From the IMG/VR virus record IMGVR_UViG_3300020190_000040: a DNA stretch of 20,000 nucleotides. The stretch is one strand, 5' to 3'. Source of the DNA: an uncultured virus (IMG/VR IMGVR_UViG_3300020190_000040). Lineage: Duplodnaviria > Heunggongvirae > Uroviricota > Caudoviricetes > Kyanoviridae. How positions within the stretch are numbered: position 1 is the stretch's first letter; the number at the start of each line of letters is the position of its first letter. This document shows, in pieces, positions 4,645 through 15,012 of the stretch. Below the pieces are notes generated by a model that worked only from the letters and a program-made list of their open reading frames with translations, made no database searches and was not told the DNA's origin. The position numbers and the translations under genes are program-made.

Positions 4645-4816
4645 CGTTCCTTCAGTCGGCTTTTGCGTCTATGAATTTACAGGTCTTTGGCGAGTGTTCT
4701 ATATAAATTTGAACGAGCTCTTCCTTTACATTGTTCGGCACTTTTGAAATGCGAACATTATTAATAAGTTTCTGAGCTTCTACACACGACCAGAGAATGA
4801 TTTCCATAGATGAACG
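4645..4816 (-). ncRNA. Glutamine riboswitch aptamer 2 (glnA class) with a large P2 insertion
   Basis: CGUUCA-UCUAUG...[~130 nt]...CAUAGA-CGCAAAAGCCGACUGAAGGAACG. P1 is CGUUC/GAACG and P2 is UCUAUG/CAUAGA. Confidence 0.75.
4652..4807 (-). CDS. 51-aa ORF embedded in glutamine aptamer 2
   Basis: MEIILWSCVEAQKLINNVRISKVPNNVKEELVQIYIEHSPKTCKFIDAKAD*. AUG lies in the P2 5' strand and the stop lies in the aptamer 3' core. Confidence 0.65.
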   Translation of the reverse strand: MEIILWSCVEAQKLINNVRISKVPNNVKEELVQIYIEHSPKTCKFIDAKAD

Positions 4817-4819
4817 ATC

Positions 4820-4870
4820 CGTTCCGAGTCGGCTTACTTCCGTTCGCTATTCGGAAATAGCGAATGAACG
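4820..4870 (-). ncRNA. Glutamine riboswitch aptamer 1 (glnA class)
   Basis: CGUUCA-UUCGCUAUU-UCCG-AAUAGCGAA-CGGAAGUAAG-CCGACUC-GGAACG. P1, a perfect 9-bp P2 and the GGAAGUAAG junction typical of the glnA motif. Confidence 0.85.
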
Positions 4871-4893
4871 TTTATTATATATCTATTTAATTT

Positions 4894-12672: not shown

Positions 12673-12758
12673 CAGTATGTCTCAGCGAGTTGCTCTACAG
12701 CATAGCATAGCGCGACGAAAAAAGCAACCGTAGTGATGGTAAAAATTGTTTCAGTCAT
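12672..12758 (-). CDS. Small membrane peptide (28 aa)
   Basis: MTETIFTITTVAFFVALCYAVEQLAETY. TGATG overlaps at both ends. Confidence 0.6.
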   Translation of the reverse strand: MTETIFTITTVAFFVALCYAVEQLAETY

Positions 12759-12952
12759 CAGAAGACACCGAAGAAGAACTTGTCAGTGAGAGCATAAGAA
12801 ATGAAACCAGCAATAATACCGACCATAGCCCAGCGTCCATTAACTTTCTCCTTTACTTGATTAGGGGAATCCATACCGTAGTTTTCGTAATACATCGTAG
12901 GCTCTGTTGCCCACATGTTTTGTTGACCACGATCATTTGTTGTTACAGTCAT
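12758..12952 (-). CDS. hli: High-light-inducible protein (64 aa)
   Basis: MTVTTNDRGQQNMWATEP...EKVNGRWAMVG...FFFGVF. Confidence 0.92.
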   Translation of the reverse strand: MTVTTNDRGQQNMWATEPTMYYENYGMDSPNQVKEKVNGRWAMVGIIAGFISYALTDKFFFGVF

Positions 12953-12979
12953 TGTAGTTTTGTAAAGAACTATTACATT

Positions 12980-13008
12980 ATTATATAGCAAAAAAAAGGG
13001 GGTGTCAA
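12980..13008 (-). promoter_or_regulatory. Perfect sigma70 consensus promoter for the hli operon
   Basis: TTGACA-17-TATAAT. Confidence 0.85.
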
Positions 13009-13017
13009 GCCCCCCTT
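12990..13017 (-). terminator. Intrinsic terminator with an embedded -35 element
   Basis: AAGGGGG-GCTTGACA-CCCCC followed by T8. Confidence 0.8.
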
Positions 13018-13056
13018 CGTAGTCATTTATACTTATTTTGTTATGATTTCCTGATA

Positions 13057-13434
13057 TCAGAACGAGTAACGAACTTTCAGTTCACCACCAAGGTCAAAGA
13101 CTTCACTCTTACGACCATACTCACCACCAACTTTAGCGTTGACGCTAACACGGTCGGAAACTCTGGCTTTCACACCAACTTCACCAACGGCAACGGTTTC
13201 ACCAGTGGTCTGTAGGAATCCATCAACCGCCGTCCACTCATAACCAGGACCGATTTCACCAAAGACAGTTACGCCCTTGGAAACTTTCTCTTCATAACCA
13301 ACACGAAGTTCAGTCTGAGCACCTTTGTAAGTGCCATCAGAAAGACCTGCAGTGGTCTTCGATTCTACATAAGGACCAGCAAAGGCGGGAGCTGCCATAA
13401 AAGGAAGAGCAGCAAGAGCAAGGAATTGTTTCAT
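13057..13434 (-). CDS. Putative small outer-membrane beta-barrel protein
   Basis: Signal peptide MKQFLALAALPFMAAPAFA|GPYVE, alternating amphipathic strands and a C-terminal KVRYSF beta-signal. Confidence 0.75.
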   Translation of the reverse strand: MKQFLALAALPFMAAPAFAGPYVESKTTAGLSDGTYKGAQTELRVGYEEKVSKGVTVFGEIGPGYEWTAVDGFLQTTGETVAVGEVGVKARVSDRVSVNAKVGGEYGRKSEVFDLGGELKVRYSF

Positions 13435-13479
13435 AAAAATTAAAAACGTAGGATAATGTCCAAAAATTAAGGACAACTG

Positions 13480-13509
13480 ATCTTAGCATAACTGTATCGG
13501 TTGTGTCAA
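13480..13509 (-). promoter_or_regulatory. sigma70-type promoter for the beta-barrel gene
   Basis: TTGACA-18-TAAGAT with TGn extension. Confidence 0.55.
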
Positions 13510-13527
13510 CTAAGAACAGGTTAAGAA

Positions 13528-13599
13528 AGCGGAGTATCGGAATCGAACCGACGACATCTAACTTGGAAGGATAGCGTTCTACCGCTGAACTAACTCCGC
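13528..13599 (-). tRNA. tRNA-Gly(TCC)
   Basis: GCGGAGT acceptor stem, anticodon loop CTTCCAA, GGTTCGATT T-loop. No encoded CCA. Confidence 0.95.
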
Positions 13600-13621
13600 A
13601 GGGTGGGGAGGTCAATCCCCG

Positions 13622-13945
13622 TGAGCAGGCTCGCCACCAACTTTGGTACGAGAAAGTTGGAAACTCGGCGGGAGTATACCTCCATCCGCACCAGCAGGCT
13701 TAACCCTTATCCTGCGGGGTTACAGTAACTTTGACTAGTCTAAAGTACTCTTCATATATTTTATCTTTAAGAAAATCAAGGTACTTGATGTCTTCTTCCC
13801 AAGTAGTTAACTGCTCCAAAATTGCCATAGCATTTTCGATTTGGTTACCACATGAAAGAAGTCTTAAAGAGTTGTATTTCGGATCATAGTTTGTCATAAC
13901 TACCAGGGGGTCCCGACCAGGGCAAGTTTAAAGTCATTCCGAGAC
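13622..13945 (-). ncRNA. manA-like structured RNA interrupted by an ORF
   Basis: 5' block GUCUCGGAAUGAC...CCCUGGUCGGGA. 3' block UGGUGCGGAUGGAG..CUCCCGCCGAG...GUGGCGAGCCUG. Two hairpin/pseudoknot units. Adjacent to a tRNA. Family recognised from memory, not by a covariance-model search. Confidence 0.7.
13700..13897 (-). CDS. 65-aa hypothetical protein embedded in the manA-like RNA
   Basis: MTNYDPKYNSLRLLSCGNQIENAMAILEQL...; helical, AT-rich. Confidence 0.6.
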   Translation of the reverse strand: MTNYDPKYNSLRLLSCGNQIENAMAILEQLTTWEEDIKYLDFLKDKIYEEYFRLVKVTVTPQDKG

Positions 13946-14131
13946 TGTTTGTGGAATAAGATCTTCCACTGCTGCTTGTACTGCAGCATCAAACTCTAGG
14001 AATGGTCCGTGATTAATGTCATTATATACGTAGTAGAACTTATTGTCAATGGTTTTAATTGAGTAATAGGTAATAACTTTATCACCCGTATCAAGTTCTT
14101 CTACAATTCTCATCTTTACTTCATCAGTCAT
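13934..14131 (-). CDS. Hypothetical protein
   Basis: 65-aa ORF whose stop overlaps the 5' hairpin of the manA-like RNA. Confidence 0.65.
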   Translation of the reverse strand: MTDEVKMRIVEELDTGDKVITYYSIKTIDNKFYYVYNDINHGPFLEFDAAVQAAVEDLIPQTVSE

Positions 14132-14158
14132 CTTTAATATAGCATAGGACGGTATGTT

Positions 14159-14593
14159 TTAATTTAACCAATTTAAAAATTCTTCATTTCCATAATTGTT
14201 CCAACCACCAGCAATTTGTACTCTGATGGGAATTTGTGTAGTAGCATGATATTCAATCAACCAAGCTAGAATAGAAGAATCAAGTTTTTGTCCACATTCA
14301 TAAACCTCATAATAAAGATTTTCATTATCCCCTCCTTTACAATCTTTAACAATTACCTTTGATTTATTCGGTTTGAACCATTCTGGAAAATCTTTATTAA
14401 TTAACCATTGACATTTAAATGTTTTACAAGGATCTTCTGGGCGATCTTTATAGATCGAGCAACATCCTTCAGAAACAAAATGACAGGGTTTGCCTGGATA
14501 AAAATGATGTCCATGAGCAGAACCCCATAACCATCCTTGACAACATTCAGTACATGTACCACAAGTTCTTTCTATGTTTACTTCATTAGTCAT
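14159..14593 (-). CDS. YkgJ-like cysteine-cluster (Zn or Fe-S) protein
   Basis: CGTCTECC...PCHF...CCSIYKDRPEDPCKTFKCQW. Confidence 0.75.
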   Translation of the reverse strand: MTNEVNIERTCGTCTECCQGWLWGSAHGHHFYPGKPCHFVSEGCCSIYKDRPEDPCKTFKCQWLINKDFPEWFKPNKSKVIVKDCKGGDNENLYYEVYECGQKLDSSILAWLIEYHATTQIPIRVQIAGGWNNYGNEEFLNWLN

Positions 14594-14828
14594 CTTTTAC
14601 ATAACAAGGGACACGATCTGGATCTAACCATTTAGTATACTCAAAGTCTTCCATTGCTGTTGTCATTTGCATTTCGTTGTCACACAGATACATATCACGA
14701 TAGCGTCCAGTAAATGAACACATTTTTTGAATACGGTAATCTGGTTTACCATTCAATTCAATTGTGCCTGTTTGTACATAACGATATGGAAACCGTTCAA
14801 GCAAGACTTTCGGAAGTTTCGTGGTCAT
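14586..14828 (-). CDS. Conserved cyanophage hypothetical protein
   Basis: LLERFPYRYV...NGKPDYRIQK...YRDMYLCDN...EDFEYTKWLDP. Confidence 0.75.
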   Translation of the reverse strand: MTTKLPKVLLERFPYRYVQTGTIELNGKPDYRIQKMCSFTGRYRDMYLCDNEMQMTTAMEDFEYTKWLDPDRVPCYVKDD

Positions 14829-15012
14829 CTTTCATAGGGAAATTGTCTTTAATAGTATCCCATACATCCTTGAGTTCGTCAAGGGCTGGAATCATGGCAA
14901 CTGCTCTCCCATCAGGAAGTCTAATGAGAAATTCTTTCTTTTCATTTTCAACTTGATTCATATAATGATCAAAATTAATTTCAAATTCTTTTTGGGTTAC
15001 TTCTTCCATCAT
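14797..15012 (-). CDS. Hypothetical protein resembling the Phd/YefM N-terminal domain
   Basis: EVTQKEFEINFDHYMNQVENEKKEFLIRLPDGRAVAMIP follows the Phd beta-alpha-alpha-beta-beta pattern. Confidence 0.55.
   Translation of the reverse strand: MMEEVTQKEFEINFDHYMNQVENEKKEFLIRLPDGRAVAMIPALDELKDVWDTIKDNFPMKDDHETSESLA

Follow-up and report, generated by a model that had tools for sequence, protein, structure and literature searches.

A probable array of wcaG-type RNA modules with a small protein gene between two of them, ahead of tRNA-Gly in a T4-like cyanophage sequence

What kind of RNA surrounds the small open reading frame (ORF) at 13700-13897 of this viral sequence, and does the ORF belong to the fold of a single RNA or stand between separate RNA elements? 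The window, meaning the whole 20,000-nucleotide stretch of DNA that was analysed, had been described in an initial annotation as carrying a manA-like RNA whose 5' and 3' halves are separated by the ORF and joined again by a long-range helix, with the coding region looped out and its AUG locked in that helix. Read along the minus strand, the locus consists of an upstream element that we call A-J0 (13946-13906), the 65-codon gene (13897-13700), a wcaG core (13723-13623), a hairpin (13620-13605) and tRNA-Gly (13599-13528).

In Rfam searches, the minus-strand stretch 13623-13723 proved to be a complete wcaG RNA core (RF01761): its score of 60.1 bits (E 3.4e-9) exceeds the cut-off of 42, and positions 1-98 of the 98-position model align in one piece. 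The manA model (RF01745) gave no match at any score, with a limit of E ≤ 10 in 13400-14200 and of E ≤ 1 across the whole window; the isolated 5' element (13860-13960) matched neither wcaG nor manA, and Sf-CH1b, a natural insert-free relative, has a wcaG match and no manA match in Rfam. Since the wcaG match is full-length and contiguous and manA is absent, the catalogued RNA is wcaG, unsplit by the ORF; both the manA label and the division of the RNA into halves by the ORF therefore have to be withdrawn. The two families are alike in being unexplained and pseudoknotted, in occurring in T4-like cyanophages and in being treated in the same section of one paper (Weinberg et al. 2010, PMC2864571), whose passage on manA describes a riboswitch candidate; manA is about twice the length of wcaG, with a 215-nt match reported in phage S-CREM1, and in the relevant part of a 2026 preprint (10.64898/2026.07.01.735769) it is modular and self-assembles into multimers.

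In the wcaG passages of the 2010 paper, wcaG is a probable cis-regulator and a riboswitch candidate upstream of non-homologous genes, drawn with one pseudoknot, and its table entry there carries no remark on repetition or modular stems (PMC2864571). The wcaG passages of later phage papers give it only as a listed Rfam hit. The window resembles described wcaG loci in its full-length match above the cut-off, its junctions UGGUGCGGAUGG and GUGGCGAGCC, its pseudoknotted 3' hairpin, its T4-like cyanophage and marine setting, and a high-light-inducible (hli) gene nearby (12758-12991). Every element of the wcaG layout, namely a hairpin, the UGGUGCGGAUGG junction with a short GGG/CCC helix, a second hairpin and GUGGCGAGCC, was found at 13723-13623. 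Unlike the usual wcaG, the window has the rarer first hairpin, which carries the ORF stop, and a pseudoknot arm directly against the stem; unlike described wcaG, its next downstream gene is a tRNA, not an exopolysaccharide or high-light gene, and 170 nt upstream, on the far side of a protein gene, there is one more wcaG-type module.

The architecture of the core was resolved as follows, all on the minus strand. The first hairpin, GCAGG/CCUGC (13715-13694, arms 13715-13711 and 13698-13694), is tied by a first pseudoknot of 6 bp between UAACCC (13722-13717) and GGGUUA (13706-13701), and the ORF stop codon UAA (13702-13700) sits within its loop. The junction UGGUGCGGAUGG (13693-13682) with P2 (13684-13669) leads to the second hairpin CCAACUU/AAGUUGG (13660-13637), around which a second pseudoknot pairs CGAG (13667-13664) with CUCG (13652-13649), and the core closes with the tail UGGCGAGCCUG (13636-13626). 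Both loop pairings of the initial annotation, AACCC with the loop of the GCAGG/CCUGC stem and CGAG with CUCG in the second unit, are thus present, the former within the longer UAACCC:GGGUUA.

Comparison across the family bears on both pairings. The four-nucleotide arms of the second pseudoknot were fully complementary in 99 of 101 family sequences, against a mean of 54.5 and a maximum of 63 when the arms were permuted; in the MAFFT alignment 97% of the cells were paired, 35 and 24 sequences showed changes in both partners, and the observed covariation was reached by 0 of 500 shuffles. In the window this pseudoknot has its rarer form, CGAG:CUCG, which five of the 101 sequences show. The first pseudoknot reached at least 4 bp in 31 of 92 parsed sequences (permuted mean 11, maximum 22), and at a threshold of at least 3 bp there was no separation (65 observed, permuted maximum 65). 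Pseudoknots and stems alike covary and use G-U pairs, as would be expected of RNA.

We then characterized the element on the 5' side of the ORF. A-J0 (AGUCUCGGAAUGACUUUAAACUUGCCCUGGUCGGGACCCCC, 13906-13946, minus strand) is GC-rich and comprises a hairpin of AGUC (13946-13943) and GACU (13935-13932) with the loop UCGGAAU, a linker UUAAACUUGCC and the junction CUGGUCGGGACCCCC (13920-13906); its hairpin contains the stop codon UGA (13936-13934) of the upstream ORF. It belongs to a recurrent unit upstream of wcaG cores, made of a 4-5-bp hairpin with a GG-containing loop, UAAA(A/C) and CUGGU(C/G)GG...CCC. A covariance model, R1, was built from 76 modules of other loci, with the window and its near-copies left out; it matched 13893-13950 with 46.2 bits (E 3e-15), and the runner-up in the 20-kb window scored 6.6 bits. 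The stem covaries in the alignment (AGUC/GACU, AGAC/GUCU, CGUG/CACG, CGCC/GGCG), a relative locus, L136, has the compensated form UGUC/GACA, and the module is kept in Synechococcus phage S-CAM3 ahead of a very different ORF. The original wcaG alignment, in the part that bears on this, includes units of the A-J0 form as hairpin P1 plus junction P2 (PMC2864571), and the Rfam wcaG model gives the insert-free A-J0-H1 unit of Sf-CH1b 41.5 bits, which misses the cut-off of 42 by 0.5 bit. At 1003-1237 of the Sf-CH1b locus, at least four wcaG-type modules stand unbroken ahead of tRNA-Gly, and Rfam reports only one wcaG. Judged from these comparisons, A-J0 is genuinely a module of the wcaG type and is conserved; the R1 match, the stem covariation, the units in the wcaG alignment and the Sf-CH1b score together indicate that wcaG is best seen as one register of a module chain. 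In the alignment of the 76 modules, we also noticed by eye that the second loop base of the module hairpin (C/U) seems to covary with a purine (G/A) three bases before CUGGU; two module subtypes show this co-variation, which may reflect a tertiary pair.

The ORF at 13700-13897 (minus strand, ATG start, 65 aa), listed as such in the initial annotation, begins 8 nt past the A-J0 junction and, on the strength of its homologues, is a real protein gene. Three homologues (63-65 aa, 80-85% identity) have the C-terminal sequence VTPQDKG in common, and it is the first wcaG hairpin that codes for these residues. Against L136, which ends after codon 43, 14 of 43 codons differ, nine of them synonymously and five not. 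The protein belongs to no Pfam family and has a weak PHROG match (phrog_741, E 3e-4). A tblastn search against 50,697 named phage records returned no match, a protein-guided metagenome scan found no DNA of diverged homologues among 596 candidate stretches, and a DNA-pattern scan for homologues returned only an identical copy and three unrelated stretches.

Could A-J0 and the core nevertheless be the two halves of one fold? In this explanation a 13-bp helix joins them, the ORF is looped out with its AUG sequestered, and folding controls translation or the insert is processed out. The complementarity itself exists and covers the AUG, with the arms UGGUAGUUAUGAC (13905-13893) and GUCAAAGUUACUG (13735-13723) pairing at 12 of 13 positions, four of them G-U, and a wcaG-type module does lie 5' of the ORF. 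As a structure, however, the helix does not stand out from chance. Its duplex energy is −6.5 kcal/mol for the arms alone and −8.0 kcal/mol for flanks of 46 and 47 nt, and pairing at least as good was obtained with 53% of 1000 dinucleotide shuffles and with 89% of 868 other same-strand 47-nt stretches. The minimum-energy fold of 13600-13950 (z only −1.96 for the whole fold) lacks the helix and instead places a local hairpin, GUAGUU/AACUAU, around the AUG, using bases that the helix would need (−4.0 kcal/mol in the window, −5.3 kcal/mol in L136), together with other long-range pairs (AACUU:AAGUU and CUGGUC:GACUAG).

Conservation of the helix, without which the initial annotation held its model to be refuted, also failed to appear. 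L136, the one diverged relative whose DNA covers the 5' arm, has UUA there where the window has UGG, and the protein homologues replace VK by IR or IK over the 3' arm, which, read back through the codons, would break at least two more pairs. Among 30 loci with an ORF between modules, the flank duplex was better than 95% of shuffles in one only. The pairs are real and the helix is not borne out, and with it goes the proposed locking of the AUG. The core, moreover, scores as a whole RNA without the 5' element, and we regard the single-fold explanation as extremely improbable. A tertiary contact between A-J0 and the core that needs no Watson-Crick helix may exist.

Group I introns that carry homing-endonuclease genes are structured RNAs in which an ORF is looped out of a peripheral helix, and a single fold around the 65-aa ORF would resemble them. 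In contrast to such introns, no closing helix, intron core or splice-site features were found in the window, and its flanks are self-contained. Nothing suggests that the genes between modules are looped out.

We next surveyed how modules, cores and genes are arranged in other phages. At least 120 stretches from viral contigs were fetched by the invariant wcaG junction pattern, so that the junction was required for inclusion, and modules were recognised by a perfect 4-bp stem, a filter that mis-sorted at least two loci with contiguous modules (L069 and L081) and makes the counts rough; for many loci only 300 nt of upstream sequence was available. Among the matches listed, which gave 114 distinct core loci, the nearest A-J module lay no more than 70 nt upstream of the core in 45, at 71-130 nt in 9 and at more than 130 nt in 33, and no A-J module was seen in the available sequence of the other 27. 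The gap in the loci beyond 130 nt was filled by an ORF of 62-251 aa in 31 of 32 examined (L017 gave 18 aa, and L081 was dropped).

The ORFs between modules fall into at least seven families, that of the window included. Among the matches listed, these comprise a membrane protein of 75-79 aa in 13 loci, a coiled-coil-like protein of 62-80 aa in 7, a protein of 66-70 aa in 6 and a Cys-rich protein in 2, next to the 65-aa ORF of the window, the S-CAM3 ORF and, in L069, a homologue of the gene upstream in the window. In the 13 membrane-protein loci (L009, L010, L016, L030, L035 and others) the AUG follows the module's CCCCUU after two bases, too close for a Shine-Dalgarno sequence to fit between, and the gene stops at a UAA within the loop of the next hairpin.

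Insert content at the slot occupied by the 65-aa ORF was compared as the initial annotation had proposed. S-CAM3 has an ORF of 227/251 aa there, Sf-FS3 two ORFs and L083 a Cys-rich ORF of 89 aa, and in L048/L075 and Sf-CH1b, which have none, the module directly abuts the core. The special first hairpin ACCCCGCAGGAUAAGGGUUAAGCCUGC of the window recurs in S-CAM3, Sf-FS3 and L083; among the matches listed, its general form ACCCCG(C/U)AGGAUAAGGGUUAA(G/U)CCUGC occurs only where an ORF runs into it (the window, S-CAM3, Sf-FS3/L073/L114 and L083). L048/L075 match the window in the upstream gene (78%), A-J0 (85%), junction plus P2 (96%) and second hairpin (93%), and also have tRNA-Gly, with a 39-nt hairpin replacing about 215 nt of the window, that is, the ORF and the special first hairpin. 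The modules are mosaic between phages at a scale of 30-40 nt: the special hairpin of the window is 100% identical to those of S-CAM3 and L083, its second-hairpin type is common to the window, L048, L083 and L015, and its tRNA-Gly shares 97% identity with the S-CAM3 and Sf-CH1b genes and only 74% with the L048 gene.

Since the modules fold alone, A-J0 abuts the core in relatives and unrelated genes fill the slot, the 65-aa gene is better regarded as a cassette than as a looped-out insert. Of the suggestion that the RNA tolerates or regulates cargo genes in a variable loop, the genes between modules stand, as the swaps at the slot indicate, and the loop falls with its helix. We give a probability of about 0.7 to the reading that self-contained pseudoknotted wcaG-type modules form an array here, upstream of tRNA-Gly, and that two of them flank a gene cassette, the comparison being unrooted. 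The module form is a short pseudoknotted hairpin plus a nearly invariant junction, UGGUG/UGGUC...GGG...CCC. To judge from the surveyed sequences, the layout of module, gene and module is common in cyanophages, and it appears new relative to the literature found: the wcaG passages of the papers retrieved by motif-name searches contain no description of wcaG as a module array with genes between.

By its nearest matches, the source of the window is a T4-like Synechococcus myovirus. Among named phages, 13450-14150 matches Synechococcus phage S-CAM3 best, at 87% identity over 35% of the query, with other Synechococcus myoviruses next; the nearest named relatives of the wcaG locus are the Synechococcus myoviruses S-CAM3, Sf-CH1b and Sf-FS3. 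Genes nearby encode a high-light-inducible protein, a thioredoxin-like protein and a cyanophage outer-membrane-like protein, and the minus strand of the window carries four tRNA genes. Elsewhere in the window, on the minus strand at 4816-4872, the glutamine riboswitch model (glnA RNA, RF01739) matched over its full length with 34.1 bits (E 4e-4), just under the cut-off of 35.

Directly downstream of the core lies the hairpin GGGGA-UUGACC-UCCCC (13605-13620, minus strand, read from the sequence), which starts 2 nt past the core and separates the wcaG tail from the tRNA. L048/L075 have it at 100% identity; it is found ahead of tRNA-Gly in Sf-CH1b as well (1222-1237 of that locus, L002), and in S-CAM3 it takes the compensated form GGGGGAC/GUCCCC. 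A counterpart lies at 2391-2408 of L001, and the hairpin looks like the junction helices of the modules. The tRNA-Gly gene (anticodon UCC, 13528-13599, minus strand; ARAGORN, and Rfam tRNA at 66.5 bits) begins 23 nt past the wcaG match. It is followed at once by a promoter-like site, TTGACA-18-TAAGAT with an upstream TG (13480-13509, minus strand), and then by the Phage_OMP gene (13057-13476) and the hli gene. If this site is active, the wcaG core would not be the leader of the Phage_OMP gene.

These surroundings raise a second explanation, in which the elements are merely neighbours in a crowded variable region, A-J0 being a 3' element of the upstream gene (a stabiliser, for example) and the core a leader of tRNA-Gly or a stable small RNA. 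The independent folding of the modules and the overlap of A-J0 with the upstream gene's stop codon agree with this, as do, among the matches listed, the 27 of 114 core loci without an A-J module in the available sequence and the same-strand tRNA found within 250 nt downstream of the core in 16 of 113 loci (tRNA-Gly(UCC) in 10 of the 16). Against it, an A-J module lies within 130 nt of the core in 54 of the 114 loci among the matches listed, A-J modules and core have the junction grammar UGGU..GGG..CCC in common, units of the A-J form were aligned as wcaG by the authors of the family in the pertinent part of their paper (PMC2864571), and in L048/L075 the same upstream gene together with A-J0 abuts the core. 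We consider this explanation unlikely.

A promoter-like TTGACA-17-TATAAT, agreeing with the sigma-70 consensus at 12 of 12 positions, lies at 14021-14049 on the minus strand inside the upstream ORF (13934-14131), and L136, L048, L069 and L075 retain both hexamers at the same distance, with variation in the bases between. The hexamers also encode conserved residues, so that coding and promoter constraint are inseparable here and the site may be an internal promoter or reflect coding constraint only; we infer a candidate start of a transcript that would include the module, the ORF, the wcaG core and tRNA-Gly. No terminator-like sites were found in 13000-15000. Contigs from two RNA libraries of one study (X1 and X2) belong to a relative and reach from its upstream gene, by way of A-J0 and the wcaG core, into its tRNA; these contigs, which may contain DNA and from which a single transcript is not demonstrable, give a weak hint of co-transcription. 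Over 13720-13875 of the window, 145 different letters in the contigs replace 154 in the middle of the ORF and both flanks match; this relative carries diverged or different cargo in the same slot. The matching RNA runs contribute small shares (0.07-0.10 of words). Most of the four runs that were aligned cover only the tRNA or A-J0, from other phages, and neither their depth nor the uncovered parts are a measure of expression.

A third explanation holds that the elements act mainly as DNA, as recombination sites for cassette exchange like the PeSLs of T4-type coliphages or integron attC sites, with incidental RNA folds. PeSLs (Arbiol 2010, PMC2839356; Comeau 2014, PMC4122927) are short repeats, conserved between genes in the variable parts of T4-like genomes, at which small genes without common ancestry trade places. 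Comeau 2014 does not contain the words 'cyanophage', 'S-PM2' or 'Synechococcus'. Varied cargo in one slot, the module mosaic at the 30-40-nt scale and junctions invariant over at least 12 nt, in a collection for which the junction was required, are what such sites would leave behind. The array, however, keeps pairs of RNA type, including an invariant U-G and many G-U pairs that are mismatches on the other strand, and the ORFs of 31 loci lie on the module strand, the only strand searched. A PeSL is composed of an early promoter and a terminator stem-loop; the wcaG modules have neither and are pseudoknotted and covarying, and no such composite was found in 13000-15000, where the promoter-like sites lie outside the modules and terminator-like sites numbered 0. 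A role mainly as DNA therefore seems to us very unlikely. For the exchange of genes at such repeats, the PeSL cassettes of T4-type coliphages are nonetheless the closest parallel.

Returning to the array of modules, one transcript would probably contain all parts, perhaps started at the promoter-like site at 14049-14021. A ribosome ending the ORF at its UAA would open the first hairpin and the first pseudoknot, and since the ribosome must open that hairpin, folding of the core and translation of the ORF's end would be mutually exclusive in time. If tRNA-Gly is processed at its 5' end, the RNA left over would finish with the wcaG core. From this arrangement we tentatively suggest, as a possibility at less than even odds, that the modules are cis-acting punctuation that sets the processing, stability or translation of adjacent cistrons and tRNAs through a ligand or a protein. 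The invariant junctions could double as recombination joints, and recombination there would explain the swapped cassettes.

The practical outcome is a correction: the RNA is wcaG, it is intact, and there is no evidence for locking of the start codon. As a riboswitch candidate, wcaG has been an orphan since 2010. Should it in truth consist of autonomous modules in a chain, with genes and tRNAs between them, the search for one fold that binds a ligand may have picked the wrong unit, and the Rfam model would cover only one register of an array. In its widest and more doubtful form, the proposal is that wcaG, in place of a single-site riboswitch, is a kit of self-folding pseudoknot modules punctuating the variable regions of cyanomyoviruses. 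As RNA, the modules would mark the bounds of small cistrons and tRNAs and tie the translation, processing or stability of these to a signal; as DNA, their invariant junctions would be where cassettes such as the 65-codon gene are swapped between phages. Were the chain of autonomous modules confirmed, the modules would offer a handle on the shuffling of small genes in cyanophages.
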